A DNA stretch of 64,000 nt from Hyalangium minutum (GTDB lineage: Bacteria; Myxococcota; Myxococcia; Myxococcales; Myxococcaceae). Numbering within the stretch: position 1 is the stretch's first letter; the number at the start of each line of letters is the position of its first letter. Under the pieces are notes generated by a model. It ran no database searches. It worked only from the letters and a program-made list of their open reading frames with translations, and was not told where the DNA came from. Where the stretch lies: the NCBI RefSeq assembly GCF_000737315.1, contig NZ_JMCB01000003.1, positions 89,394 through 153,393 on the forward strand, read 5' to 3'. A program made the translations under genes and the position numbers. Shown here piece after piece: positions 3,610-29,158 of the stretch.

Positions 3610-3631
3610 GTGTGCAGACGGTGGTGGGTTC

Positions 3632-3680
3632 GCGGCGGCGGCTCCTTTGTTCGGGGCCGCCGCTTTGCTTTTCTGCTTCT
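3632..3680 (+). terminator. Intrinsic terminator after amtB
   Basis: Stem GCGGCGGCUCC / GGGGCCGCCGC (11 bp with one G-U pair), loop UUUGUUC, followed by UUUGCUUUUCUGCUUCU. Sits in the convergent gap between amtB and the gene at 3691..4965. Confidence 0.5.
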
Positions 3681-3690
3681 GGAAGAGGGC

Positions 3691-4965
3691 TCAGCGCGAC
3701 TGCGGCTGCGAGGCCTGCTCCGAGGCCACGGGCGTGAGCTTCCACGTACCGTACCAGCGGCCTCCCTGGGGATCCTCGGCGAAGGCCACACCTTGGAGCG
3801 CTCCGGCCTGGAGGACCGCGCGGAACTGCACCGTGGTCTCCAGGAACGAGGGATCGCGGATGGAGAAGGTGAGCTCGTTGCTCTGCAGGACCGGCTGGAG
3901 GGGAGCCTCGGCTGTGCCGCCCTGGCTGAAGGTGAGGCGCGCGCGGCCGTTCATCCCGTTCCCCGTGTCTTCGAGAGAGAGGCGCAGGGTGGCGGGTGTC
4001 ATGCCCGTCTCAGCGGGGTAGAGGGCCAGCGAGCCGCTCCAGGTGCCTGCGAGCCGGGCCGGCGGAAGGGGCTCGCCCTGAGGCAGGCTGGGGAGGGGGG
4101 GATGCGCGGGCGCTGGGGCCGTGCCGGTGGGGGGGAGCTTCTGCGTGAGAGCCACCTCGGAGCCCACCTGTTGCAGGTAGCGCGCGGTGTCCTCAGGAAG
4201 GGACACGAGCGTCACCGGGTGGGCGGCGTCGAAGCCTGAGCCCGTCCAGGGCGCACCGGTGAGGGTGCCGGGCGCACCCGTGCAGGGCTGGTGGAAGATC
4301 GAGGCGAACAGGACACAGGCCGAGAGGTAGCTGCCCGCAGGCCCGGGGTGGTGGCCGTCCTGCGCATACAGCTCGAGCTCGGGGTGCTCGCGGCGGACGC
4401 GCTCCCATGCGACGCCCACAGGGGCGAGCGCGGCACCCAGCTCGGAGGCAATGCGCGCGTAGGCTTGGGTGAGGTGCCCCTGGGCGGCCAGGTTCGCCTT
4501 GCGAGACCACGTCATATAGAAGAGCGGCTTTGCGCCCACCGCCGAGGCCTGGGCCGCCAGCTGGCGCGCCGCGGGGAAGAACAGCGGCTCGGGATCGCCC
4601 AGGTAGGCCACGCCGTCGATGCGCATGCCTCCCAGCAGGCTCTGCTCCTGGAGCACCACGTGGCTCCATCCACCCTCGGCCATGCGCCGGGAGGCGGTGC
4701 CCTCCGTGAGGAGCCATCGCAGCGTCGCGCCGCCGGTCAGCACGGACTCCGTCTCGATTCGGGACTGCGGGGCCAGGGCGCGCGCGAATCCCTTCAGCAT
4801 CTCGGGGACGCTGTTCTCATACGTGTAGCTGTTGCCGATGAAGAGGACTCGGGTCATGGCGGAGGGACCTGCGTCGGTAGAGGCCTCGGTGGACGGCGGG
4901 GGACTGCGGTCTGTGCGCGAGGTGCAGCCCAGCAGGAGAAGCAGGCTCCAGAACAAGCGGGACAT
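3691..4965 (-). CDS. SGNH/GDSL-like hydrolase lipoprotein with a C-terminal beta-rich extension of unknown function
   Basis: Lipoprotein signal (LLLLLGCTS). Block I motif VLFIGNSYTYEN places Ser in a GxSxT context. Family assignment is from motif resemblance only. Confidence 0.45.
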   Translation of the reverse strand: MSRLFWSLLLLLGCTSRTDRSPPPSTEASTDAGPSAMTRVLFIGNSYTYENSVPEMLKGFARALAPQSRIETESVLTGGATLRWLLTEGTASRRMAEGGWSHVVLQEQSLLGGMRIDGVAYLGDPEPLFFPAARQLAAQASAVGAKPLFYMTWSRKANLAAQGHLTQAYARIASELGAALAPVGVAWERVRREHPELELYAQDGHHPGPAGSYLSACVLFASIFHQPCTGAPGTLTGAPWTGSGFDAAHPVTLVSLPEDTARYLQQVGSEVALTQKLPPTGTAPAPAHPPLPSLPQGEPLPPARLAGTWSGSLALYPAETGMTPATLRLSLEDTGNGMNGRARLTFSQGGTAEAPLQPVLQSNELTFSIRDPSFLETTVQFRAVLQAGALQGVAFAEDPQGGRWYGTWKLTPVASEQASQPQSR

Positions 4966-4979
4966 GGCGAGAGGAGCGT

Positions 4980-5723
4980 TCAGAAGCGCCCGGCGAGTCC
5001 ACCGAGGACGCCGCCGTGAGGGGTGACGGTGGCCACTGGAATAACCATCGGCGTGAGGGCCCGGTCGCGTTGCCTTCGGGCGAGGGCCCGCGAGTGGGAG
5101 AGCTCGTAGCCGATCATGCCTCCGACAACAGGTCCGGCGATGAAGGGGATGACCGCCAACTCATCCGCGGAAGAGGCCAGGCCCAGAGCGAGAAGAGAGC
5201 CGATCAGGGTACCGATCGCCGCGCCGCCGGCGGTGGGCCAGTACTCGCCCTCGCCGTGCAGGAGACTTCCCGCGCCGGTGATGCCGAGGGCCGCTCCTCC
5301 CGCGAGCCCTGCCAGGCCGAGACCCAAGCCAAGGATGGCTCGGGAATCCTCTCCGCCGTTGCAGGCGTCATCGCAGAGGATCGCGCTGAAGATGAGGAGT
5401 CCTCCGGGGATGATGCCCACGGAAGCGCCGACGCTCCCTCCGACGAGCTCGAGGAGCAGCCGAGGCGCGGTGGGACTGGGGTCGGTGCCGGCGTACCAGT
5501 CGCGACGGATGATCTCGCCCCGAGACGCGTCCTCAGGGGAGGGCTCGAGGGAATCGCTCGGGGCCGCCTGAGGGCTGTCGGCAGGGGACTCGGGAGGCGC
5601 CGGGACGAGCGGAGGGGGTGTCACGTTGGGGACCGGTTGCTCGAGAGGAGCCGCGTTCTGGGCGAGTCCTGGCAGGGGGAGCAGGAGGCAGAACAGCAGC
5701 GGCGCGAGGCGAGCGGTCGGCAT
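4980..5723 (-). CDS. Secreted Pro-rich protein with a glycine-zipper membrane segment (hypothetical)
   Basis: Signal peptide (LLFCLLLPLPGLAQ). Pro/Ser-rich linker. GxxxG-rich hydrophobic C-terminal half. GC3-rich frame. The overlapping + strand ORF 5016..6059 is Arg-rich and rejected. Confidence 0.4.
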   Translation of the reverse strand: MPTARLAPLLFCLLLPLPGLAQNAAPLEQPVPNVTPPPLVPAPPESPADSPQAAPSDSLEPSPEDASRGEIIRRDWYAGTDPSPTAPRLLLELVGGSVGASVGIIPGGLLIFSAILCDDACNGGEDSRAILGLGLGLAGLAGGAALGITGAGSLLHGEGEYWPTAGGAAIGTLIGSLLALGLASSADELAVIPFIAGPVVGGMIGYELSHSRALARRQRDRALTPMVIPVATVTPHGGVLGGLAGRF

Positions 5724-5775
5724 GCCCCGCAGCGTAATGCCGTGGGAGTGGGAGCAGGAAGCTCAAGGCATGACA

Positions 5776-5802
5776 GAACCTGTCCGACAAGTAGACAGGT
5801 TC
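5776..5802. promoter_or_regulatory. Perfect 9-bp inverted repeat GAACCTGTC-N9-GACAGGTTC in a divergent intergenic region
   Basis: Read directly from sequence at 5776-5784 and 5794-5802, with an inner GACAG-N3-CTGTC palindrome just before it. Lies between the start of the gene at 5723 (-) and the Uma2 gene at 5924 (+). Confidence 0.3.
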
Positions 5803-5923
5803 GTGGCGGCTCCGTCCGGCAGGCGCCGCTGTATCCTGGTGGGCACTGGGGCTGCGGGGTCCCTTGCGCTCATGGGGGTTGCAAGGCAACCTACAAGGTA
5901 GGGTCAGACCCACGTGACCCAGG

Positions 5924-6544
5924 ATGTCAGACCCGGACGGTAGACCCCTCCCCATGGAAACGGGGATGGGCGTTGGAGAGGATGAAGAGAGCATGGGGCG
6001 CAAACCGGCCACGTACGCGGATCTGGAAGCGTTACCCGAGAACGTGGTGGGGGAGCTGATCGCTGGGGAGCTGTACGTCAGCCCTCGGCCAGCGTCGCGT
6101 CACGCCCGGGCCGCCTCTGTGCTGGGCGTCAAGCTAGGAGGCCCTTTTGACCTGCGAGATGGAGGTCCGGGAGGCTGGGGCATCCTCGACGAACCGGAAC
6201 TTCACTTCGGGGAGGATGCGCTGGTGCCAGACTTGGCGGGCTGGAGGCGGGAACGGATGCCCGCGTTGCCGGACACCGCAGCCTTCGAGTTGGCACCGGA
6301 TTGGGTGTGCGAGGTGCTCTCTCCGTCCACGGCCTCGCTGGATCGGACCATCAAACTCCCGGTGTATGCCCGTGAAGGGGTCAGCCATCTGTGGCTGGTG
6401 GACCCCAAGGCGCGCACGCTGGAGGTGCTCCGGCTCGACGGGGAGCGCTACACGCTCCTGGGCAAACACGAGGCAGGTGCCCGTGTTCGCGCGGAGCCCT
6501 TCGAGGCGCTCGAACTGGAGCTGGCCCCCCTCTGGGAGATGTAG
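5924..6544 (+). CDS. Uma2 family (DUF820) putative restriction-endonuclease-like protein
   Basis: Conserved Uma2 core (...PDLAGWRRERMP...PDWVCEVLSPST...KLPVYAREGVSHLWLVDP...). The true start is probably the internal Met near MGRKPATYADLE. Confidence 0.75.
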   Translation: MSDPDGRPLPMETGMGVGEDEESMGRKPATYADLEALPENVVGELIAGELYVSPRPASRHARAASVLGVKLGGPFDLRDGGPGGWGILDEPELHFGEDALVPDLAGWRRERMPALPDTAAFELAPDWVCEVLSPSTASLDRTIKLPVYAREGVSHLWLVDPKARTLEVLRLDGERYTLLGKHEAGARVRAEPFEALELELAPLWEM

Positions 6545-6581
6545 TCCCGAGGAGGGCTCCAGCGGCGCCCCGGTACCGCGG

Positions 6582-17291: not shown

Positions 17292-19124
17292 TCAGGCGAT
17301 CCGATCCACCCTCACATCCACCTCCAGCGTCTCCGGTCCGCCTCCCACGAAGATGGTCCCCGAGGTGGGCGTGGCATCTCCGTAGCCGCGCCCCACTGCG
17401 ACGCGGACGTGCGAGGTCTGCGTCAGGATGCCGTTGGTCGGATCAAAGCCCCGCCAGCCCACCTCGGGCAGGTAGAGCTGCAGCCACGCGTGGGAGGCCT
17501 CCGCCTGCCGTTGGTTCGGATTCTGGGGACCACAGTAGATGTAGCCGCACGTGTAGCGCGCCGGCACGCCCAGCAGCCGCGCCATGCAGATGAACAGGTT
17601 GGTGAAGTCCTGGCAGACGCCGCGCCGGTTCACGTACACGTCGAACGGCGTCGTGTAGATCGTCGTCGAGCCCTGCCGGTACTCGTACTCGCGGAAGATG
17701 GACGCGTTGATGTCGAGCAGCGTGTCCAGCAAGTCGTAGTCGTTCCGCTTCACGAAGCTCATCGCGTACTCGGTGAGCTCCACCAGCTGCGTCTCGGGCA
17801 GCTCCTGGGGCAGCAGGTACGGCTGTAGCACCTGCTGCTGCCAGGGCATCCACACGAGCGGAATGGTGCTGCGCTCCTTGGGCGCCCGGAACTGGAGCGG
17901 ATCCGTGTCGTAGAGCTCCACCGTGGAGCGCGCCTCGATGGCCAGCTCCGTGTAGGGCCTCTCGAGGTGCACCCGCGTGGCCCGGTTGCCGAACACGTCC
18001 TCGTAGTCCCGGCGCTTCCCGTCCACGGACAGGTGGAGCTGATGCCCAATCACCGCCTGCAGCTCGTCGTGCATCGGCCGCAGCCGGAACAGGTGGGTGC
18101 TTCGCTCGATGGGGTTCTGGTAGCGGTAGACGGTGCGGTGCACCACGGAGAAGCGCTGCACCTCCGCCTTCGAGGGCAGCCGCAAGTCCCGTTGCCTGGC
18201 GGTGAAGAAGGGCTGCGAAGGCGCCTCCCCGGGAGCCACGGGCGCCGGAGCCGCGGACTGCGTGTCGGGCACCTGCTGCGGAATGGGCTGGACCTGCGCG
18301 GGTACCTGTACCTGGAGCTGGGGCTCGGGCGGCTTCACCTCCGCGGTGACCGTGCCCTGGCGGATGCGCAGGAGCGTCCCCGGCGCGAGCCGCTTCCAGT
18401 CCACCTGGGCGTTCTGCTCGGGCTGGAGCGGGTTGGAGCAGACGAGGACGCCCTTGCGGCTCTTGAGGCCGCGCTTGGTGAGATCCACCAGGATGTCGCC
18501 ATCACCGAAGACGAGGCTGTCGTGCGGCGGCTGCAGCGTCCAGATGTACAGCTCGTGCGCTGGATCGCGATCCGCATAGACGCACATGTCGTGTCCATCC
18601 GTGAGGATGGTGGTGAGCGAGCCGTGCTCGTTGGTCTCGGCGAAGAAGGACCGCAGGGCCTCCAGATCGACGTCCCCCAGGCTGCGCCACCCCTTGTCGG
18701 AGATCATCGACATGAGCTGGCAGAAGATGAGCTCGGAGTCCGTCGAGCCGATGGGCTCGAAGCGCTGCGGGGTGTTGGCCTCGATGCGGTGGGCCAGGCT
18801 GCCCGAGTGCGCCATCAGCCAGTCGCGCCCGCCCCAGGAGCGCCGGAACGGCTGGGTGTTGCCCGGAGAGATCTGCCCCCAGATCGCCGTGCGGATGTGG
18901 AGCACGAACAGCGAGGAGGCCAGGTGCTCCCAGGCCTTCACCAGCTCGCTGCGGATAGAGCCAGGCGGGGGCGCTGCTTCCTTGAGCACCTCTGCCGCGA
19001 GATCGCCACCCGGGTAGTAGCCGATGCCCCATCCATCGGGCGGTTGGCGCTGGGGACTCAGACAACGAAGATCGAAGGAGGGGGCGAGTTCCCCCTCGAA
19101 GCTCATGGCGAGAACGTTGGGCAT
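17292..19124 (-). CDS. Fusion protein: class II glutamine-amidotransferase-like (YafJ-type) domain without the nucleophile Cys, then a Pro/Gln-rich linker and a bacterial transglutaminase-like N-domain and core
   Basis: N-terminal MPNVLAMSFEG...DGWGIGYY resembles YafJ/Gn_AT_II, but residue 2 is Pro rather than Cys. The C-terminal half has the Bact_transglu_N pattern (RFSVVHRTVYRY...LRP) and a TGase core with Cys (GVCQDF), His (SHAWLQLYL) and Asp (GFDPTNG). Confidence 0.75.
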   Translation of the reverse strand: MPNVLAMSFEGELAPSFDLRCLSPQRQPPDGWGIGYYPGGDLAAEVLKEAAPPPGSIRSELVKAWEHLASSLFVLHIRTAIWGQISPGNTQPFRRSWGGRDWLMAHSGSLAHRIEANTPQRFEPIGSTDSELIFCQLMSMISDKGWRSLGDVDLEALRSFFAETNEHGSLTTILTDGHDMCVYADRDPAHELYIWTLQPPHDSLVFGDGDILVDLTKRGLKSRKGVLVCSNPLQPEQNAQVDWKRLAPGTLLRIRQGTVTAEVKPPEPQLQVQVPAQVQPIPQQVPDTQSAAPAPVAPGEAPSQPFFTARQRDLRLPSKAEVQRFSVVHRTVYRYQNPIERSTHLFRLRPMHDELQAVIGHQLHLSVDGKRRDYEDVFGNRATRVHLERPYTELAIEARSTVELYDTDPLQFRAPKERSTIPLVWMPWQQQVLQPYLLPQELPETQLVELTEYAMSFVKRNDYDLLDTLLDINASIFREYEYRQGSTTIYTTPFDVYVNRRGVCQDFTNLFICMARLLGVPARYTCGYIYCGPQNPNQRQAEASHAWLQLYLPEVGWRGFDPTNGILTQTSHVRVAVGRGYGDATPTSGTIFVGGGPETLEVDVRVDRIA

Positions 19125-19228
19125 CCGGTCGAGCGGAAGGTAGTGAGCCGTTTTGTACAGAGAAGCAGCCGGTCACACGGCCCGTGCGGCCGCGTCACCT
19201 GGAGAACAGCTATCGCAAGAGCCCCGGC

Positions 19229-22200
19229 TCAGCCCGGGGTCTCCTCCTCGGCTGGAGGCTTGGGAGGCCGGTAGTCGAGCGGCAGGCGGCGCAGGTCGAG
19301 GGTGGTGGGGTTCTCCGCGCTGGGCTGGGCCGGACGGGCCTTCACCGGCCAGGGCAGGGGAGCCTCGGAGGTGAAGCGCTGCGCGCGGCGGGCGGAGGCC
19401 TCGAAGCGGGTGAGCGGCGGGGTGGAGAAGGCACGGCCCTCGGGGTGCCACACGTGGTAGGCGCAGGCGCCCAGCGAGCGCTGCCCCCACGTGTCGAGCA
19501 GATCCAGCCGGATGGGGTGGTGGATGCCCAGGTGTGCGTGCAGGCTGTGCGGCGGAGCCCACGCGCGGAACCGCACCCCGGCCACCCACTCGTTGGCCTT
19601 CGCCGTGGGCGTGAGCGGCAGCGTGTGCCCGTTGACGAGCAGCAGGTGCCGCTCCGGGATGAGTCCGGAGACGCGCACCTCGATGCGCTCCATGGACGAG
19701 TCCACGTAGCGGGAGGTTCCGCCCCCGCTCAGCTCCTCGCCCAGCACCGGCCAGGGCTCGAGCGCATTGCGCACCTCGATCGTGACATCCCCCAGCTGCA
19801 TGCGCCCGGCGAGCGGGCAGCGCAGCTCCAGGAAGGGGGTGTACGCCTCCTGCGGCAGGGGAACGCCCTTGGCCGCGAGGTGGGCGAGCACGTCCTCCAG
19901 GTCCCGTCCCAAGTAGTAGGGCAGCAGGTACTTGTCGTGGAGCGACGTGCCGAAGCGGACCAGCTTCTTCTGGTAGGGCTCCTGGGCGAACGCGGCGAAG
20001 AGCGCGCGCACCAGGATGGCCTGCGCGGACACCATGCGCGCGTGCGGCGGCATCTCGAAGGCGCGCAACTCCACCAGTCCCTGCCGCCCGGTGGCCGTCT
20101 GGGGGTCAAACAGCTTGTCCAGACTCAGCTCCGCCCGGTGGGTGTTGCCCGCCACGTCCACCAGCAGGTTCCGGAAGAGCATGTCCGACAGCCAGGGCGG
20201 CGGCGCGGTGCCAGCGTTGAAGGCCTTGTCGAGCGCGATCTCCAGCTCGTAGAGCGCCTCGTGCCGCGCCTCGTCCACGCGCGGTGCCTGCGAGGTTGGC
20301 CCCACGAACAGGCCGGTGAAGAGGTACGACAGCGACGGGTGGTGCTGCACGAAGGTGATGAGCGAGGCCAGCAGCTCGGGCCGGGTGAGGAGCGGGCTGG
20401 ACAGGGCCGTCGGGCCACCGACCGTGATGTGGTTGCCGCCGCCGCTGCCGGCCATGCGGCCGTCCATCAGGTACTTCTCGCTGTGGAGACCCGCGTGGAG
20501 GGCCGCGTCGAACACCTGGCCCACGAGCTCCGTGTACTCGCGGTTGCTCGACACGGGCGGCAGGTTGACCTCGAGCACGCCCGGGTCCGGCGTCACCGCG
20601 AAGCGGTAGAGCAGCGGCGAGGACGGGGGAGGGTAGCCCTCCAACTGAATGGCGATGCCGGTGTGCTCGCGCGCCTGATCGATGATGGACACGAGATCGA
20701 AGAAGTCCTCGGCCCGGGCCAGCGGCGGCAGGAACACGTGCACCGTTCCACCGCGCGCCTCAAAGGCCAGCGCGGTCCGCACTCGGGGCAGGCGGCTGGC
20801 TCGCTCCTTCGCGATGACCTTGTGCTGCTTGGCCTCCTCGGGGGACGGCTCGCGGCGCGGATCGATGGGCTCATAGGGCTCCTCCCAGAGGTCGGAGAGC
20901 GGGTCTCCCTCCGAGAGCGAGCGCAGCGGCAGCCGCAGGCCGAGCGGGCTGTCACCCGGGAGCAGGAACAGGTGGCGCCGCCGGAACTGCCAGGGGTCGC
21001 TGACCCAGCGCCCGTCCGTGTCTCGCCCGAGGGGCAGCACGAAGCCCACCTCATTGCCGAGCCCCTGGCCCAGAACCTTGGCCAAGCGCCGCCGCTCCTC
21101 CGAGTCGTTGAGGTTGGCCTTGAGCGGATCGACGTCCACCGGCAGGTTCTCCTCGTCCTGCAGGAAGCGCCACGGATCCTCGAAGGCGGGGAGCAGGTGC
21201 TGAGCCAGGCCGAGGCGCGACGCCACCGCCTGCGCGACCTCGCGCGCCTGTGCCGTGCCTGCGTTGTCTCCCGAAGCCAGCGCCTCGCCCGTCCAGAGAG
21301 GCTCCCGGTCGCGCCGTCCGCAGATGTCGAGCGCCCAGCGAGGCAGGCTCTCTCCTGGATAGTGCTTTCCGGCGCGCAGCAGCAGGGCCGCTCCAGGGGA
21401 GAGCCGCCGCCGGAGCTCCTCGGCGAGCTTCACCCCGAGCTTCCACTTGGTCTCGCCCAGCGCGTCGCCGTTCCACTCCGGCAGCTCGGTGTGCTCGCGG
21501 GCGTTGAAGGTGGGCTCGCCGCCGATGGTGAGCTTCACCCCGCGCTCCCTCAGCACCGCGTCCGCGCGATCTCCACCCTCGCAGAGGGCCTGCCACACCT
21601 CGTCCGTGTAGGGCGCCGTCGGCCGAGGCTCGTGCCCGAGCCGGCCCACCGTCATCGAGAACCGCACCTCCTCCGCCTGGGTGTCACTGGTGCCCTCGAT
21701 GGGGGCTGCCAGCGCCGGTGAGGCCGTCGAGGCGAGCGGGATATGGCCCTCGCCCGTCAGGAGTCCGCTGGTGGCGTCGAGCCCGATCCAACCCGCCCCG
21801 GGCAGGAAGACCTCCGCCCAGGCGTGCAGATCCACCACGTCGCGTCCCACGCCGCGCGGCGCGTTGGGGATCATCCCTTCGTCGGTGAGCTGCACCAAGT
21901 AGCCGCTCACGAAGCGCGCCGCGAGCCCGCGCGAGCGCAGCACCGCGATGAGCAGCATCGCCGAGTCCCGGCAGCTGCCCTTGCCCGCCGCGAGCGTCTC
22001 CTCGGGTGTGTGGATGCCCGCCTCCTCGCGGATGATGTACTGGATGCGCTGGTTCACCTTCTCGTTGAGCTGAATGATGAGCGGGACCGTTGGGCCGGAG
22101 CGCGGCAGCTCGTCGAGGAAGGCCTTGAGGCGCTCGCCGCCTCGCACCGCTGGCTCGTTCACGTCGAGGAAGGGGAGGAGGTCCTGCTTCAGCTCCGGCG

Positions 22201-22594
22201 GGTAGGCGAAGGGGACGACCTCGCAGCGGTCGTCGAGGAGGAAGTCGAACGGGTTCACCGGCCGCACGTCGACGGCCAACTCCACCGTTACCTCGAGGTG
22301 CGGGACGCGCACGCCTTCGGGGAAGGTGACGCGGGCGACGCGGTTGCCATACGGATCCTGCTGCCAGCGTACCTGCGCGGTGGAGGGCTCGACGGTGAGG
22401 CCGTAGCTCTCGATGGCGGCACGGGCGTGAAGCGCCGGGCGCAGGCGGATGAGGTGCGGGCCGAGGGCCGCAGGCTTCGGGTAGCGGTACAGGTTGCGAT
22501 GCTGAATGAGCAGCCGCACGAGGTCCTCCCAAGTGACCTCGCCACGATACCCAAAGCCTGCTGGGGCCGTACGGAGAAGTCGGCCGTCATTCAC
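19229..22594 (-). CDS. Large transglutaminase-family protein (Bact_transglu_N, transglutaminase core and a DUF2126-like C-terminal region)
   Basis: GTG start 2 nt after the upstream stop. N-terminal VRLLIQHRNLYRY...LRLRP. Catalytic Cys (GKGSCRDSA), His (DLHAWAEVFL) and Asp (GLDATSG). About 700-aa C-terminal extension typical of DUF2126 proteins. 1121 aa. Confidence 0.8.
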   Translation of the reverse strand: MNDGRLLRTAPAGFGYRGEVTWEDLVRLLIQHRNLYRYPKPAALGPHLIRLRPALHARAAIESYGLTVEPSTAQVRWQQDPYGNRVARVTFPEGVRVPHLEVTVELAVDVRPVNPFDFLLDDRCEVVPFAYPPELKQDLLPFLDVNEPAVRGGERLKAFLDELPRSGPTVPLIIQLNEKVNQRIQYIIREEAGIHTPEETLAAGKGSCRDSAMLLIAVLRSRGLAARFVSGYLVQLTDEGMIPNAPRGVGRDVVDLHAWAEVFLPGAGWIGLDATSGLLTGEGHIPLASTASPALAAPIEGTSDTQAEEVRFSMTVGRLGHEPRPTAPYTDEVWQALCEGGDRADAVLRERGVKLTIGGEPTFNAREHTELPEWNGDALGETKWKLGVKLAEELRRRLSPGAALLLRAGKHYPGESLPRWALDICGRRDREPLWTGEALASGDNAGTAQAREVAQAVASRLGLAQHLLPAFEDPWRFLQDEENLPVDVDPLKANLNDSEERRRLAKVLGQGLGNEVGFVLPLGRDTDGRWVSDPWQFRRRHLFLLPGDSPLGLRLPLRSLSEGDPLSDLWEEPYEPIDPRREPSPEEAKQHKVIAKERASRLPRVRTALAFEARGGTVHVFLPPLARAEDFFDLVSIIDQAREHTGIAIQLEGYPPPSSPLLYRFAVTPDPGVLEVNLPPVSSNREYTELVGQVFDAALHAGLHSEKYLMDGRMAGSGGGNHITVGGPTALSSPLLTRPELLASLITFVQHHPSLSYLFTGLFVGPTSQAPRVDEARHEALYELEIALDKAFNAGTAPPPWLSDMLFRNLLVDVAGNTHRAELSLDKLFDPQTATGRQGLVELRAFEMPPHARMVSAQAILVRALFAAFAQEPYQKKLVRFGTSLHDKYLLPYYLGRDLEDVLAHLAAKGVPLPQEAYTPFLELRCPLAGRMQLGDVTIEVRNALEPWPVLGEELSGGGTSRYVDSSMERIEVRVSGLIPERHLLLVNGHTLPLTPTAKANEWVAGVRFRAWAPPHSLHAHLGIHHPIRLDLLDTWGQRSLGACAYHVWHPEGRAFSTPPLTRFEASARRAQRFTSEAPLPWPVKARPAQPSAENPTTLDLRRLPLDYRPPKPPAEEETPG

Positions 22595-23503: not shown

Positions 23504-24415
23504 TTACAGGGAGGAAGTGAGCGACAGCAGCTCTGTGCGCAGCCACTGGTTGCGCGGCTCTGAATCCGATTGCCGGTGCCAATAGAGGTGCAGCTCCAGC
23601 GGCGGGAGCGACAGCGGCATTGGCAGGAGGTGGTTGCCCAGCAGGGCGTGCAGCTCCTCCGCGCGGCGCCGCGGCATGGTGAGGAGGAACTTGGAGCCAG
23701 CGACCATCTGGAACGCCGCCTCGTAGTGCTGGCATCGCACGGTGACGTCGCGCTGGTAGCCCAGGCGGGAGAGGACCAAATCCTCCACGGCCAGCCCCGT
23801 GCGCCGAGAGGACACGGTGACATGCCGCGAAGCCATGTACGCCGCCACGTCCAGCCTGCGCCGGCGTCGGCTCACCACGCAGAAGGTGTCCCGCAGCAGG
23901 GTGGTGTGCCGCAGGTCGGCGCCCGTCTGCTGCTCCACGTCGATGGACAGGTCCACCCGCCCCGAGGCCAGATCCCGCTCCAGCCGAGGCCTATCCAGCC
24001 GGACGCTCGTCACCCTCGCTCCAGGAGCGCTCTGGCGCAGGCGCGCCACCAGGTGCGGGAGGATGGAGGGCTCGAGCACGTCGTTCATGGCTACGGTGAA
24101 GGTGCCCAGGTCGCGGGGAGGATCGAAGCTCCGCGTGCGGTGGATCGCCCGGTCGAACAGCGCGAGGGCCTCGCGAAGCTCCGGCGCCAGCCGCTCCGCG
24201 AACGGCGTGGGTGCCACGCCTCGGCCCTCCCGGACGAAGAGCGGCTCTCCCAGCTGATCCCGAAGCCGGGCGAGTGCATGGCTCACCGCCGATTGGCTGA
24301 GGAAGAGCACCTCCGCGGCCCGCGTGAGGTTCCGCTCCCGGAGGACCACGTCAAAGACGCGGAAGAGGTTGAGGTCCAGCCTCGCCAGCCGGGAAGAGTC
24401 ATGAACAGACTTCAT
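23504..24415 (-). CDS. LysR-family transcriptional regulator
   Basis: N-terminal HTH (LNLFRVFDVVLRERNLTRAAEVLFLSQSAVSHALARLRDQLGEPLF) plus a LysR substrate-binding domain. This is the true C-terminal 303 codons of the spurious 975-aa ORF. Divergent from the ACAD operon and co-directional with the reb-like genes. Confidence 0.88.
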   Translation of the reverse strand: MKSVHDSSRLARLDLNLFRVFDVVLRERNLTRAAEVLFLSQSAVSHALARLRDQLGEPLFVREGRGVAPTPFAERLAPELREALALFDRAIHRTRSFDPPRDLGTFTVAMNDVLEPSILPHLVARLRQSAPGARVTSVRLDRPRLERDLASGRVDLSIDVEQQTGADLRHTTLLRDTFCVVSRRRRRLDVAAYMASRHVTVSSRRTGLAVEDLVLSRLGYQRDVTVRCQHYEAAFQMVAGSKFLLTMPRRRAEELHALLGNHLLPMPLSLPPLELHLYWHRQSDSEPRNQWLRTELLSLTSSL

Positions 24416-24493
24416 GGGAACACATGACCAACCTTCACTGGATTCATCAAGGCCGAACGCGGAGGATGCAGGCCTTCCAGAAGGAGACTTGCG

Positions 24494-25729
24494 ATGGACT
24501 TCGAGCCGAGCGCCCGAACCAAGGACTACCTGGAGCGCCTCCGGCGCTTCATGCGCGAGCACATCGAGCCGGCCGAGGCCCGCTACCGGGATGAGGTCCA
24601 CGCCACCTGCCAGGCGGGTGACTGGAAGACGTGGAAGGTTCCGGCGGTGATGGACGAGCTGAAGGCTCGCGCGAAGGCCGAGGGCCTGTGGAACCTGTTC
24701 CTGCCCGATGAGAAGCTGGGCGCGGGCCTGAGCACCCTGGAGTACGCGCCGCTGGCCGAGGAGACGGGGCGCAGCTTCATCGCCCCCGAGGTCTTCAACT
24801 GCAGCGCTCCGGACACCGGCAACATGGAGGTGCTCTGGAAGTACGGCTCCGAGGAGCAGAAGGAGCGCTGGCTCAAGCCGTTGCTGGCCGGGGAGATCCG
24901 CTCGGTGTTCTGCATGACGGAGCCGGACGTGGCGTCCTCGGATGCCACGAACATGCAGGCCACGGCCGTCGTGGAGGGCAACGAGATCGTCCTCAATGGC
25001 AGCAAGTGGTGGTCGAGCGGCCTGGGCCACCCGAGGGCGAAGGTCATCATCTTCATGGCGCGCACGCCCAACGAGCAGGGCGGCCGCCACAATCAGCACT
25101 CCATGGTGCTGGTCCCCATGGACACCCCGGGCGTGACGATCCGCCGCATGCTGCCCGTCTACGGCGAGTACGACGCGCCCCATGGACACGGAGAGGTGCA
25201 CTTCAAGGACGTGCGCGTGCCCGTTTCCCACTTCATCGCCGGACCGGGGCAGGGTTTCGAGATTGCCCAAGGCCGTCTGGGACCCGGCCGCATCCACCAC
25301 TGCATGCGCTGCATCGGCGCGGCGGAGCGGGCGCTGGAGCTGATGATCGATCGGGGCATGGCGCGCACTGCTTTCGGCAAGCCGCTGCTCAACCTGGGTG
25401 GCAACCGCGAGCGCGTCGCTGAGGCCCGGGTCGCCATCGATCAGGCGCGGCTGCTGACGTTCTTCGCGGCGTGGAAGATGGACGAGGTGGGTGCCCTGGG
25501 AGCCATGACGGAGATCTCCGCCATCAAGGTCGTGGCGCCCAACGTGCTCCAGCAGGTGGTGGACGACGCCATCCAGATCCACGGGGGCGCGGGCGTGTCC
25601 CAGGACACGGTGCTCGCGGGCTTCTTCGCCCAGGCGCGCATCCTGCGCATCGCGGACGGTCCGGACGAGGTCCACAAGGGCGTCATCGCGCGTCTCGAAC
25701 TGGCCAAGCGCGGCCATTCCCGGAGCTGA
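24494..25729 (+). CDS. Acyl-CoA dehydrogenase (ACAD10/11-like / LvaC-like subgroup)
   Basis: ACAD N-terminal, middle and C-terminal domains ([29 protein letters not shown]). 411 aa. Confidence 0.92.
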
Positions 25730-25732
25730 GCC

Positions 25733-26548
25733 ATGGCCAACCAACGCATCTTCATCACCGGTGGTGCCAGCGGGCTCGGGAAGGCCATCGCCCAGCGCTT
25801 CGCCCGCGCGGGGTGGAAGGTCTGCATCGCGGACCTCAACGAAGCCCGGGGCGCGGAGGTGCTGTCCTCCTTGGGCCCGGACGCGCACTTCCTGCGCTGC
25901 GATGTGACGCGCGACGAGGACCTGATCGCAGCAGCGGAGACGCTCCAGCAGCGCTGGGGCGGCGTGGACGTGGTGGTGAACAACGCCGGGGTGGCCCAGG
26001 CGGGCGCCATCGAGGACGTGTCGATCGATGACTGGCGCTGGATCATCGACATCAACCTGCTGGGCGTGGTGCGAGGCTGCAAGGTGTTCACGCCCCTGTT
26101 CAAGCGGCAGGGCCACGGGCACTTCGTCAACGTCTCCTCCATGGCGGGCCTGCTCGATGCGCCGATGATGAGCAGCTACAACGCCACGAAGGCCGCTGTC
26201 GTCTCCCTGTCGGAGACGCTGCACAACGAGCTGGCGGACGCGAACATCGGCGTCAGCGTCGTCTGCCCGGCCTTCTTCAAGACCAACCTGACCGAGTCGC
26301 TGCGCACTCCGGATCCGCGGCTGAAGGTCACCATGGCGAAGCTGCTGGATCGCTCGCCCATCACCGCGGATGACGTCGCCAATGATGTCTTCCGCGCCGT
26401 GGAGCGGAGGCAGTTCTACGTCCTGTCTCACGCGCAGGGCCGCAGGGCGTGGCTGATGAAGCGCTTCCTCCCGAGAGAGATCTACGCCCGGTTGTTGCGC
26501 AAGAGCACCGCCCGGATGCGCCCGCGCCCCGACCCCACACAGACTTGA
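25733..26548 (+). CDS. Short-chain dehydrogenase/reductase (SDR)
   Basis: TGGASGLGKAIA Rossmann motif, NNAG, and S...YxxxK (SSYNATKAA). Starts 4 nt after the ACAD stop. Confidence 0.9.
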   Translation: MANQRIFITGGASGLGKAIAQRFARAGWKVCIADLNEARGAEVLSSLGPDAHFLRCDVTRDEDLIAAAETLQQRWGGVDVVVNNAGVAQAGAIEDVSIDDWRWIIDINLLGVVRGCKVFTPLFKRQGHGHFVNVSSMAGLLDAPMMSSYNATKAAVVSLSETLHNELADANIGVSVVCPAFFKTNLTESLRTPDPRLKVTMAKLLDRSPITADDVANDVFRAVERRQFYVLSHAQGRRAWLMKRFLPREIYARLLRKSTARMRPRPDPTQT

Positions 26549-26565
26549 GGAGAGATCGCGACGCC

Positions 26566-27642
26566 ATGCCTTCCACCTCGCCCACTGACTCGGCCGGAGC
26601 CGTCCGCCCGGGAGAAGAACTGAACGTCCCCGCCGTGGATGCCTGGCTCAAGACCCAGGTGCCCACGCTGGAGGGCACGCCTGAAGTCACCCAGTACTCG
26701 GGAGGTGCCTCGAACTGGACCTACCGGCTCAAGTACGCCAACCGCGATCTCATCCTTCGCCGGCCCCCGGCGGGGACGAAGGCCAAGTCCGCGCACGACA
26801 TGGCCCGCGAGTACTCGGTGCAGAAGGCCCTGAAGCCTGCCTATCCGGCCGTGCCCACCATGATCGGCCTGTGTCAGGACCCGGCGGTGCTGGGCTCGGA
26901 CTTCTACGTGATGGAGCGCATCGAGGGCCTCATCCCTCGCAAGCACCTGCCTCGGGGGCTCACCCTGGACCAGCCGCAGACGCGGCAGCTCTGTCTCAAC
27001 GTCATCGACAAGCTGGTGGAACTGCACTCCGTGGACGCGGCGGCCGTGGGGCTGTCGTCGCTGGGCAAGGGGCCCGGCTATCCGAAGCGGCAGATCGAGG
27101 GCTGGTCGGACCGCTACGAGAAGGCTCACACCTGGAATGTGCTCGGCTTCCAGTATGTGCGCGATTGGCTCAAGGCCAACACCCCCGACGATGTCGCCAC
27201 CTGCGTCATCCACAACGACTGGCGCTTCGACAACGTGGTGCTCGATCCAGGAGAGCCCATCCGAGTCATCGGCGTGCTCGACTGGGAGATGGCCACGCTG
27301 GGAGATCCGCTGATGGATCTGGGCAATGCGCTGGCCTACTGGGTCCACGCCGACGATAACTTCTTTTTGCGAGCCACGCGGCGCCAGCCCACGCACCTGC
27401 CTGGCATGCTCCGGCGCGAGGAGGTGGTCGAGTACTACCTCGATCGCATGAAGCTGAAGCCGGCCAACTGGACCTTCTATGAGGTCTACGGCCTGTTCCG
27501 GCTCGCCGTCATCGCCCAGCAGATCTACTACCGCTACCACCACAAGCAGACGCGCAACCCCGCGTTCAAGAACTTCTGGGTGCTGGTCAACTACCTCGGG
27601 CTGCGCTGCAACCGGCTCATCCGGAAGAAGGGGGCACGCTGA
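26566..27642 (+). CDS. APH-family phosphotransferase (aminoglycoside phosphotransferase-like kinase fold; LvaA / ACAD10-11 kinase-domain-like)
   Basis: GGASNWTYRL nucleotide-positioning loop, a Brenner-like HNDWRFDNVVL catalytic motif, and VLDWEMATLGDP. Start chosen at MPSTSP; the ORF extends upstream to 26449. Confidence 0.8.
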   Translation: MPSTSPTDSAGAVRPGEELNVPAVDAWLKTQVPTLEGTPEVTQYSGGASNWTYRLKYANRDLILRRPPAGTKAKSAHDMAREYSVQKALKPAYPAVPTMIGLCQDPAVLGSDFYVMERIEGLIPRKHLPRGLTLDQPQTRQLCLNVIDKLVELHSVDAAAVGLSSLGKGPGYPKRQIEGWSDRYEKAHTWNVLGFQYVRDWLKANTPDDVATCVIHNDWRFDNVVLDPGEPIRVIGVLDWEMATLGDPLMDLGNALAYWVHADDNFFLRATRRQPTHLPGMLRREEVVEYYLDRMKLKPANWTFYEVYGLFRLAVIAQQIYYRYHHKQTRNPAFKNFWVLVNYLGLRCNRLIRKKGAR

Positions 27643-28334
27643 TGGGCGTCGTATACTTGGTTCGCCATGGACAGGCCTCGTTCGGGGCCGCGGACTACGA
27701 TCAGCTCTCGGAGATGGGGGTGGCGCAGGCGAAGGTGCTCGGGGAGGCGCTGCGCGCGCGGCTCCCGTGTGTGGATGCGGTGGTCACCGGAGGAATGGCG
27801 CGACACTGGCAGACGGCGGATGCGTGCCTGAAGGCGCTCGGGGTGGCGGTGCCTCACAAGCGCATGGTGGACTTCAACGAGTACGACCACGAGGAGATCG
27901 TCGTCCGCCACATCCCGCGCTACGCGGACAAGAGCCTGATGATGCAGGACCTGGCTGAGACGCCAGACCCTCGCCGGGCCTTCCAGGAAGTGTTCACGCA
28001 GGCCGTCGCCCGCTGGGTCGAGGGCCGGCACGAGGCCGACTACACCGAGACCTGGGCCGCTTTCCGGGAGCGCAGCCTCCGCGCGTTGACGGAGCTCATC
28101 CAGGAGCTGGGAGCTTCCAAGACCGCGTTGGTGTTCACCTCGGGGGGACCCATCACCGCCATCTGCCAGGACCTGCTGCGGATCCCCGACGAGCACGCCT
28201 TCCGCCTGAACTGGACGCTGGCCAACTGCGGCGTCACCAAGATCGTCTACAGCGAGCGCGGCCGGTACCTCTCCACGCTGAACGAGCACGGCTACTTCGA
28301 GGGTGCCCAGCGCGCGCTGCTAACGTACCGCTGA
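27642..28334 (+). CDS. Histidine phosphatase family protein (phosphoglycerate-mutase-like)
   Basis: RHGQASF catalytic-His motif near the N-terminus. Its ATG overlaps the TGA of the upstream kinase gene (ATGA). Confidence 0.8.
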   Translation: MGVVYLVRHGQASFGAADYDQLSEMGVAQAKVLGEALRARLPCVDAVVTGGMARHWQTADACLKALGVAVPHKRMVDFNEYDHEEIVVRHIPRYADKSLMMQDLAETPDPRRAFQEVFTQAVARWVEGRHEADYTETWAAFRERSLRALTELIQELGASKTALVFTSGGPITAICQDLLRIPDEHAFRLNWTLANCGVTKIVYSERGRYLSTLNEHGYFEGAQRALLTYR

Positions 28335-28338
28335 GGCA

Positions 28339-28367
28339 GCGCGGCCCCCGTTACTCCGGGGGCGCGC
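28339..28367. terminator. GC-rich hairpin in a convergent intergenic region (putative bidirectional terminator lacking a U-tract)
   Basis: GCGCGGCCCCC-gttactcc-GGGGGCGCGC. A second hairpin, CGTGAGG...CCTCACG, follows. Confidence 0.3.
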
Positions 28368-28456
28368 TGAGCCCGGGGACTCCGGGCCCAGCACAAAACC
28401 TGGCCGCCAGGGCGTGAGGGTCCCGAAGAGAAGCCCTTCCTCACGCCCCAGCGGGC

Positions 28457-29158
28457 TCAGGCAGCGGAGGTCGAGGCATCCCCCACACCGTTGGCGCCCA
28501 GATCCGCGAGCATCTGCTCGCCCTCCAACTCGTCGATGGGGACGAAGGCCTCGCGGCCGGGGCGGTAGGCATGCACCTTTGCATTGCCAATGTCGAACCA
28601 CCAGCCGTGCAGCCGCAGCGTGCCCGCGGCCATGCGCTCGCGCACCAGGGGGTACGAGCGCAGGTGGGCCAGCTGCTGCAGCACGTTGAGCTGGCTGAGC
28701 CTGTCCGCCGGCTCCAGGCCCTCACCCACGCGGCCGGCCTTCTCCAGGGACTGCAGGGCGCCGCGGCCCAGATCCAGCCAGTCGCAGAGGTTGGGGCACC
28801 GCGCGTCCGACATTCCCGCCAGCAGCGCCTTCATGGCGCCGCAGCTGGAGTGCCCGCACACCACCACGTCCGTCACCGGCAGGTGGAGCAGGGAGTACTC
28901 CACCGCGGCGGCCTCGGAGCGGTCGCCCATGGACTGGCCCGACGCATCCGAGGGCGCCACCATGTTGCCCACGTTGCGCATGACGAAGAGATCGCCCGGA
29001 TCCGTGGACACCAGGAGGTTGGGCACCACGCGGCTGTCAGCGCAGGTGATGAAGAGGCAGTCCGGAGTCTGGCCCTTGGCCAGGCGCGCGAAAGTGGAGC
29101 GGTAGGCGGGGAGGCTGTGACGCTGGAAATCCAGGAGACCGCGAATGAGCTTCTTCAT
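28457..29158 (-). CDS. Beta-class carbonic anhydrase
   Basis: CADSRV and HSSCGA zinc-ligand motifs. 233 aa. Its start overlaps the stop of the upstream SulP gene by 4 nt. Confidence 0.92.
   Translation of the reverse strand: MKKLIRGLLDFQRHSLPAYRSTFARLAKGQTPDCLFITCADSRVVPNLLVSTDPGDLFVMRNVGNMVAPSDASGQSMGDRSEAAAVEYSLLHLPVTDVVVCGHSSCGAMKALLAGMSDARCPNLCDWLDLGRGALQSLEKAGRVGEGLEPADRLSQLNVLQQLAHLRSYPLVRERMAAGTLRLHGWWFDIGNAKVHAYRPGREAFVPIDELEGEQMLADLGANGVGDASTSAA

Follow-up and report, generated by a model that had tools for sequence, protein, structure and literature searches.

A LysR-linked ACAD–SDR–kinase–histidine phosphatase operon of Hyalangium minutum, predicted to feed 4-hydroxyacyl-CoA esters into beta-oxidation

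A route in which 4-hydroxy acids are phosphorylated and the phosphate is then eliminated was worked out recently, mainly in mammals. In mouse and human ACAD10 and ACAD11, an aminoglycoside phosphotransferase (APH)-fold 4-hydroxyacyl-CoA kinase and an atypical, phosphate-eliminating acyl-CoA dehydrogenase (ACAD) are modules of one fused protein (PMC12440821, PMC11342911). Paquay et al. showed that the stand-alone kinase Q63VL0 and ACAD Q63VL1 of Burkholderia pseudomallei, when purified, can each replace the ACAD10 counterpart in vitro with 4-hydroxyhexanoyl-CoA (PMC11342911), and the phosphate-elimination chemistry has been shown for ACAD10/11, for LvaC and for this bacterial pair (PMC11342911, PMC12440821). 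The chemistry had been established earlier for the lvaABCDE operon of Pseudomonas putida KT2440 (Rand et al. 2017, as described in PMC6692424, PMC11342911 and PMC12440821), in which a 4-hydroxyacyl-CoA is phosphorylated by LvaAB and the ACAD-family LvaC removes the phosphate. Habe and colleagues described a levulinate-induced cluster of Pseudomonas citronellolis LA18T in which a histidine phosphatase gene lies directly 3' of an LvaA homologue and no LvaB is present, and speculated that this phosphatase acts on 4-phosphovaleryl-CoA (PMC6692424). Here we analyzed a 64,000-nt stretch of the Hyalangium minutum genome (contig NZ_JMCB01000003.1, positions 89,394 to 153,393; hereafter the window; G+C 66–72%), in which genes for an ACAD, a short-chain dehydrogenase/reductase (SDR), an APH-fold small-molecule kinase and a histidine-phosphatase-fold protein (HP) follow one another and are faced by a gene for a LysR-type regulator. 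The reading that we favor, with a probability of about 0.72, is that these genes form a four-gene operon under LysR control, through which 4-hydroxyacyl-CoA esters enter beta-oxidation.

The regulator gene (23504-24415, minus strand, 303 aa, Pfam HTH_1 and LysR_substrate) is separated by a divergent control region of exactly 78 nt (24416-24493) from the ACAD gene (24494-25729, plus strand, 411 aa, three ACAD Pfam domains), which is followed on the same strand by a classical SDR gene, hereafter SDRa (25733-26548, 271 aa, adh_short 186 bits), the kinase gene (26566-27642, 358 aa, APH 165 bits) and the HP gene (27642-28334, 230 aa, His_Phos_1 80 bits). All five families scored well over the Pfam cut-off, and coordinates and domains agree with the arrangement that an earlier note on this DNA had described, a LysR gene facing ACAD–SDR–APH–HP across 78 nt. 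The same note had spoken of overlapping starts and stops; this is true of the kinase and HP genes, which share one base (TGATG, −1 nt) in the sole true overlap of the operon, but not of the other two junctions, where the spacer is 3 nt between ACAD and SDRa (TGA-3 nt-ATG) and 17 nt between SDRa and kinase (TGA-17 nt-ATG, with a GGAGAG ribosome-binding site inside). The kinase start was placed at ATG 26566 because homologues are 354–366 aa long and align from residue 1–8, and the GTG at 26449 given in the list of open reading frames (ORFs) was rejected on the same grounds. An exact-sequence look-up of the ACAD returned no matching record.

The locus shares features with each of the described systems and differs from each of them. 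Like ACAD10, it gives the kinase a phosphatase-fold partner, which is a HAD domain in ACAD10 and a histidine-phosphatase fold here; unlike ACAD10 and ACAD11, its proteins are separate, and an SDR and a LysR regulator are added. Stand-alone proteins are also found in the tested B. pseudomallei pair, and the related locus of Burkholderia cenocepacia (L090 in our set) holds the families of the window in a changed order, HP-APH-SDR-SDR-ACAD-LysR, with a kinase just 32% identical to that of the window. With the P. putida lva operon, the window has in common an SDR gene and, by prediction, the phosphorylation-elimination chemistry. However, the P. putida system needs the 12-kDa LvaB together with LvaA, encodes a CoA ligase (LvaE) and a transporter (LvaFG) of its own, and is governed by the sigma-54-type regulator LvaR, whereas the window has no LvaB, no such ligase or transporter, and a regulator of the LysR type; the P. 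putida operon has no phosphatase, and the window carries one of the histidine-phosphatase fold. The P. citronellolis cluster is similar in having an HP-family gene after the kinase, an ACAD and an SDR, and in being without LvaB. It differs in its order (kinase-HP-ACAD-SDR), in its LvaA-type kinase (59% identical to LvaA), in the CoA ligase, transporter and PrpR/LvaR-type regulator alongside, and in its HP, which has 218 aa against the 230-aa subfamily of the window.

When the window ACAD was compared with all PDB sequences, it scored 573 bits against 4hr3, which is uncharacterised, and 459–465 bits against mouse and human ACAD11 (mouse 8v3u, 464 bits), whereas conventional ACADs such as SCAD and MCAD reached 142 bits at most. 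With the ACAD domain of mouse ACAD11 it shares 54% identity, and LvaC was reported to be 56–62% identical to ACAD11 and ACAD10 (PMC11342911); by identity, the window ACAD and LvaC are comparably close to ACAD11. The mutagenesis of Rashan et al. showed that ACAD11 handles the 4-phosphate through R626, H634 and R637 of the "HCMR" helix, and ACAD11 uses D753 in place of the Glu of other ACADs (PMC12440821). In the alignment, ACAD11 R626, R631, H634, R637, D753 and H597 correspond to R261, R266, H269, R272, D388 and H232 of the window protein, so that the phosphate-binding residues of the R...HCMR helix (R261, H269, R272) are present and the usual catalytic Glu is replaced by Asp (D388). All six residues are invariant among 75 kinase-adjacent orthologues. 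On this basis the window ACAD is predicted to eliminate phosphate from a 4-phosphoacyl-CoA and to give a 2-enoyl-CoA. The note had assigned it to the ACAD10/11/LvaC group, as opposed to the ordinary beta-oxidation ACADs, and had fixed this comparison in advance; the scores (464 versus ~140 bits) and the signature residues bear the assignment out.

The window kinase scored 254 bits against the PDB entry 9o56, labelled "aminoglycoside phosphotransferase"; with the ACAD11 kinase domain it reached 167–170 bits, and with 3dxp 158 bits. The first of these entries is probably the Caldalkalibacillus thermarum homologue of the ACAD10 kinase that was studied in PMC13596139. Across 84 kinase sequences, the catalytic D218, N223 and the metal motif D239-W240-E241 are invariant, and so are R81, which stands beside the alpha-C Glu (E82), and R175, the equivalent of ACAD11 R176. 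In ACAD11, the two corresponding Arg residues, R176 and the one beside the alpha-C Glu, were modelled as holding the CoA moiety; the match of R81 is by its position beside that Glu, and the source paper numbers the residue R86. The closest relative is the kinase of Pyxidicoccus caerfyrddinensis (88% identity), followed by those of other Myxococcaceae and Archangiaceae (81–87%). A role in antibiotic resistance was considered and rejected on NCBIfam scores (APH(3') 20.8 against a cut-off of 205; Mph(A) 20.5 against 550).

The neighborhood of the kinase was compared among 83 loci, 80 from species-representative genomes scanned with an alignment of the kinase and three annotated plasmid loci; neighbors were identified by tblastn with the window proteins, and because some contigs are incomplete, the counts that follow are lower bounds. 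The loci come from eight phyla (Myxococcota, Alpha-, Beta- and Gammaproteobacteria, Acidobacteriota, Gemmatimonadota, Bacteroidota, Planctomycetota, Actinomycetota and Deinococcota), and Acinetobacter, Psychrobacter, Kribbella and Deinococcus are among the genera in which the operon is frequent. What the note had called a variant module thus turns out to be a very common cross-phylum operon and not a rare one. The ACAD gene lies directly 5' of the kinase in 74 of the 83 loci, with the SDR gene alone intervening in the window, and the HP gene lies directly 3' in 58; an SDRa orthologue stands between ACAD and kinase in 26, and a divergent LysR gene (31–84% identity) is found beside the ACAD in about 30, across Myxococcota and Beta- and Gammaproteobacteria. 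The most complete form is LysR<>ACAD-SDRa-APH-HP-SDRb, in which SDRb is a second SDR, and the window and Myxococcus xanthus have the form without it. M. xanthus, which is genetically tractable, carries an identical five-gene unit between different flanks (L086), and the operons of Deinococcus and Streptomyces have two SDRs each. Clustering of all surrounding ORFs revealed no other widely recurrent family near the kinase. Because the families co-occur in spite of changes in gene order and in kinase clade, as in B. cenocepacia, Deinococcus, Streptomyces and the P. citronellolis cluster, we consider that their association reflects function and not mere inherited synteny. Together, the similarity, the residues and the adjacency in 74 of 83 loci support the earlier proposal of a 4-hydroxyacyl-CoA phosphorylation-elimination module for its core of ACAD and kinase.

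Some of these loci also have neighbors that the window does not have. In Paraburkholderia (L019) they include a CoA-transferase, an acyl-CoA synthetase, OmpW and a strictosidine-synthase/SMP-30-like beta-propeller that is a putative lactonase. Propellers of this strictosidine-synthase/SMP-30/gluconolactonase-like kind adjoin the module in four unrelated lineages (L019:11140-12072, L014:3221-4366, L018:5565-6752 and L030:5539-6825). The link to lactones that the note had suggested therefore finds some backing in these four lineages but none in the window. Acyl-CoA synthetases are found near the module in Psychrobacter, and in Sphingobium (L088) a FadB/J-like gene lies directly 5' of the ACAD-kinase pair. 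Among the ORFs scanned over the 64 kb of the window, no AMP-binding acyl-CoA synthetase, beta-oxidation enzyme, lactonase or organic-acid/ActP-type transporter was found. This bears out the absence of an acyl-CoA synthetase gene noted before, and for LvaB, likewise noted as absent, the spacers of 3, 17 and −1 nt leave no room in the operon.

Ordinary beta-oxidation cannot process 4-hydroxyacyl-CoA esters, and in the mechanism that we propose the operon would provide their entry route. As suggested by homology and the conserved residues, the APH-fold kinase would use ATP to convert a 4-hydroxyacyl-CoA to the 4-phosphoacyl-CoA; the ACAD would then grip the phosphate through R261, H269 and R272 and, with D388 as the base and FAD acting in a redox-neutral way, release a trans-2-enoyl-CoA. 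Since neither the operon nor the rest of the window has an acyl-CoA synthetase, a transporter or a lactonase, the substrate most likely arrives as a CoA ester. It is likely to stem from mid-chain hydroxy or oxo fatty acids, or from products of lipid peroxidation, whose chains have been shortened; free levulinate or lactones are less likely sources.

SDRa shows the cofactor motif TGxxxGxG as "TGGASGLG" and the catalytic motif YxxxK as "YNATK" in its translation, exceeds the cut-off of NCBIfam PRK05650 (402 against 297 bits), and has as its best solved relative the (3R)-hydroxyacyl-CoA dehydrogenase of yeast MFE-2 (2et6, 159 bits). It is predicted to be a hydroxyacyl- or oxoacyl-CoA dehydrogenase. 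Asp34 at the end of beta-2 is kept in at least 95% of 27 sequences (the window protein and 26 orthologues), which by the standard SDR rule makes it an NAD(H)-type enzyme. SDRb has about 248 aa, matches NCBIfam PRK08251 (409 bits for the Pyxidicoccus copy, L004:6875-7621) and carries an invariant "CARR", whose Ala-Arg-Arg occupies the position of the SDRa Asp and points to the NADP(H) type. It lies 3' of HP in 54 of the 83 loci, including that of Pyxidicoccus, the closest relative of the window, and is found nowhere in the 64 kb of the window, nor at the M. xanthus locus. With low confidence, SDRa probably interconverts 4-hydroxy- and 4-oxoacyl-CoA, as a stereochemical or redox entry step, or else oxidises a 3-hydroxyacyl-CoA side product. 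Where both SDRs are present, an oxidising NAD enzyme and a reducing NADPH enzyme would fit an inversion of 4-hydroxyacyl-CoA via the 4-oxo intermediate, an idea that we infer from the cofactor types. Such an inversion would matter, as the kinase of ACAD10 favors the R form (PMC11342911).

HP keeps, as invariant residues, several that mark branch 1 of the histidine phosphatase superfamily, namely R8 and H9 of the RHG nucleophile motif (R8-H9-G10), the second Arg (R54) and the acidic proton donor E80; H83 is invariant as well. Its AlphaFold2 model (pLDDT 89.7) was matched by Foldseek to members of the histidine-phosphatase family with probability 1.0, and the nearest solved folds, iPSP (4ij5) and PhoE (1h2e), are distant (TM 0.63–0.75, at most 20% identity). 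Of the "PGM-like phosphatase" of the note, the fold therefore stands, by Pfam and by the model, while the phosphoglycerate-mutase models score far under their cut-offs; a phosphoglycerate-mutase or cobC role was rejected on this account (GpmB 20.7 against 261). Being translationally coupled to the kinase, HP would, again with low confidence, probably hydrolyse unproductive phospho-intermediates or modulate the kinase. A bolder combination, which we regard as rather unlikely, is that HP is no simple hydrolase and serves either as a proofreader or phosphomutase for phospho-acyl-CoAs of the wrong isomer or position, or as a regulatory subunit of the kinase analogous to LvaB or the ACAD10 HAD domain, and that SDRa and SDRb jointly invert 4-hydroxyacyl-CoA via the 4-oxo compound so that both enantiomers reach a stereoselective kinase. 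This would amount to an undescribed extension of the pathway.

Several observations weigh against reading the operon as an entry route for 4-hydroxyacyl-CoA esters. The kinase is predicted from homology to be a 4-hydroxyacyl-CoA 4-O-kinase, yet it shares just 34% identity with the kinase domain of ACAD11 and 38% with the C. thermarum homologue (9o56). The Lys of the HxDxK motif, essential in the latter, is Arg220 in the window kinase (HNDWR), a difference from ACAD11 as well, and is Arg in 83 of the 84 sequences of the clade; judged from the alignment this is a conservative change, yet it marks a separate kinase clade. No B. pseudomallei protein, the tested kinase included, was among the best 120 relatives of a Paraburkholderia orthologue of the window kinase, and the tested proteins may belong to another clade. 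HP does not have the canonical second active-site His, as it shows "TSGG", with an invariant Ser167, in place of "SHG"; this holds in 59 of 59 aligned sequences, in 30 database homologues and in a profile alignment to the Sts proteins, and the B. cenocepacia copy beside the divergent kinase (L090:5337-6005) also has "TSGG". HP may thus not be a phosphatase at all, and the roles assigned to it and to the SDR are conjecture. H55, H83 and N214-E215-H216 are also invariant in HP and might compensate for the missing His. Finally, chimyl alcohol, a 1-O-alkylglycerol, was reported to be phosphorylated in vitro by the ACAD10 kinase domain and by several prokaryotic homologues in purified form, some of which need acetyl-CoA (PMC13596139).

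This last activity underlies the main rival explanation, a salvage of ether lipids or glycerolipids, in which the kinase would act on 1-O-alkylglycerols or monoacylglycerols and HP on a glycerophospholipid intermediate, in parallel with the kinase and HAD-phosphatase activities of ACAD10. Myxobacteria make ether lipids, which we counted in its favor, and the pairing of such a kinase with a phosphatase recurs in bacteria. The phosphatase domain of ACAD10 acts on 1-O-alkyl-2-acetyl-glycero-3-phosphate, and the best PDB match of the window kinase is probably the C. thermarum structure of the same study (PMC13596139). However, the kinase gene almost always stands beside an ACAD gene whose phosphate-binding and catalytic residues are invariant, an adjacency that is sensible only if the product of the kinase is an acyl-CoA, and the kinase residues modelled as CoA contacts are conserved. 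Acinetobacter, Psychrobacter, Kribbella and Deinococcus, where the operon is common, are not known for ether lipids, and ether-lipid genes turned up neither in the window nor among the recurrent neighbors of the kinase. The coupling to the ACAD and the many different taxa lead us to disfavor an alkylglycerol-kinase role, which we consider improbable.

We give similarly little credence to a dedicated levulinate or 4-hydroxyvalerate operon for growth on C5 keto and hydroxy acids, in which the SDR would be LvaD, a 4-oxoacyl-CoA reductase that uses NADH or NADPH, and would reduce levulinyl-CoA, with the kinase as LvaA and the ACAD as LvaC. The three families do match, and the levulinate-induced P. 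citronellolis cluster pairs a histidine phosphatase with an LvaA homologue in the absence of LvaB (PMC6692424), but the acyl-CoA synthetase, the ActP/LvaFG-type transporter and the sigma-54 LvaR-type regulator that would go with such an operon are all absent from the window, the regulator being of the LysR type. The tight spacers exclude an LvaB-like ORF, the SDR is of the NAD type, and the ACAD11 pocket has been described as taking much longer chains (PMC12440821). The generic public annotations of such genes ("acyl-CoA dehydrogenase family protein", "phosphotransferase family protein", "aminoglycoside phosphotransferase", "histidine phosphatase" and "phosphoglycerate mutase") would also allow a beta-oxidation ACAD, a housekeeping reductase, an aminoglycoside or macrolide resistance kinase and a PGM-like enzyme to lie side by side without any relation. 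This is hardly credible and already contradicted by the data, since the resistance and metabolic equivalogs (APH(3'), Mph(A), GpmB) are far under their cut-offs, the ACAD has Asp for the catalytic Glu together with the HCMR motif, and the association is kept across eight phyla and through rearrangements.

For the favored reading, that of a LysR-controlled operon for 4-hydroxyacyl-CoA esters, the LysR protein probably serves as the cognate regulator. Its matches to NCBIfam equivalogs all stayed below the cut-off (best BsrA, 227 bits against 480). In the 78-nt gap, a lysR-proximal block at ~24420-24452 is near-invariant in comparison with Pyxidicoccus and Archangium (ACACATGACCAAC.TTCACTGGAT.CATCAAGG), while the remainder of the gap diverges. 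Of 30 LysR/ACAD intergenic regions, taken from Myxococcota and Beta- and Gammaproteobacteria, 25 contain the 12-nt motif TCAYT-N3-TTCA, without any change of orientation, against a background of seven matches in 523 kb; as the motif was defined after viewing the same sequences, these figures overstate the enrichment, which by this comparison is nevertheless too large for chance. The copy in the window, TCACTGGATTCA at 24435-24446, is a candidate LysR operator, and the regulator would probably sense a pathway intermediate and bind there. In Gammaproteobacteria, a dyad resembling ATGAAT-N3-ATTCAT is often found 5' of the motif. A promoter scan of the region revealed no sigma-70 consensus.

The novelty of the operon is lower than first proposed, given the tested B. 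pseudomallei pair and the HP gene beside an LvaA homologue in P. citronellolis. Beyond the P. citronellolis report, we found in the literature no description of a LysR-ACAD-SDR-kinase-HP(-SDR) operon and no tests of its accessory genes. Many bacteria thus have the core of kinase and ACAD in a small unit under LysR control, joined by two or three further conserved genes, and the roles of HP and the SDRs could show how cells deal with 4-hydroxy acids of either configuration and with phosphorylated dead-end products. The role of HP could also illuminate why ACAD10 has a phosphatase-like domain, and work on these partners could help settle the dispute over 4-hydroxyacyl-CoA and alkylglycerol as the kinase substrate. 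As to annotation, new names could be given to thousands of genes that now go under "aminoglycoside phosphotransferase", "acyl-CoA dehydrogenase" or "phosphoglycerate mutase".

Searches of plasmids by tblastn found no lva-type operon. They brought up paralogous SDR-ACAD-APH modules on plasmids of Acinetobacter pittii (L084:4056-7065) and Paraburkholderia fungorum (L085:4024-7044), whose proteins are ~35% identical to those of the window and whose ACADs also keep "SHCMR" and "YDGP"; around the A. pittii module lie genes for enoyl-CoA hydratase, thiolase and acyl-CoA synthetase. These modules point to a broader family of kinase-coupled ACADs. On a Burkholderia humptydooensis plasmid (L089:4769-6903), an ACAD (39%) and an APH-fold kinase (31%) directly follow a nonribosomal peptide synthetase gene and precede a thioesterase gene; natural-product biosynthesis may have taken over this pair. 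Cupriavidus necator pHG1 (L087) has an ACAD without an annotated kinase beside it. The FadB/J-linked pair (L088) and the rearranged B. cenocepacia cluster (L090) described above also came from these searches.

On its 3' side, the operon is followed by a convergent carbonic anhydrase gene and a SulP transporter gene. A GC-rich hairpin at 28399-28411, between the end of HP and the carbonic anhydrase gene, is the single terminator-like match in 24300-28600 and lies on the minus strand; it is a weak candidate for a shared terminator, as the count of such matches is not above that in shuffled sequence. Upstream of the LysR gene lies a DUF2126/transglutaminase gene (19229-22594, minus strand), a large gene with transglutaminase-like domains and a DUF2126 "putative amidoligase" domain, adjoined by a further minus-strand gene (17292-19172) in which a class-II glutamine amidotransferase domain accompanies transglutaminase-like domains. 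This pair (17292-22594) appears to be unrelated to the operon. A region of about 3 kb at 3610-6580 has 70% G+C, positive GC and AT skew and long ORFs without a Pfam match, and contains no tandem repeat.

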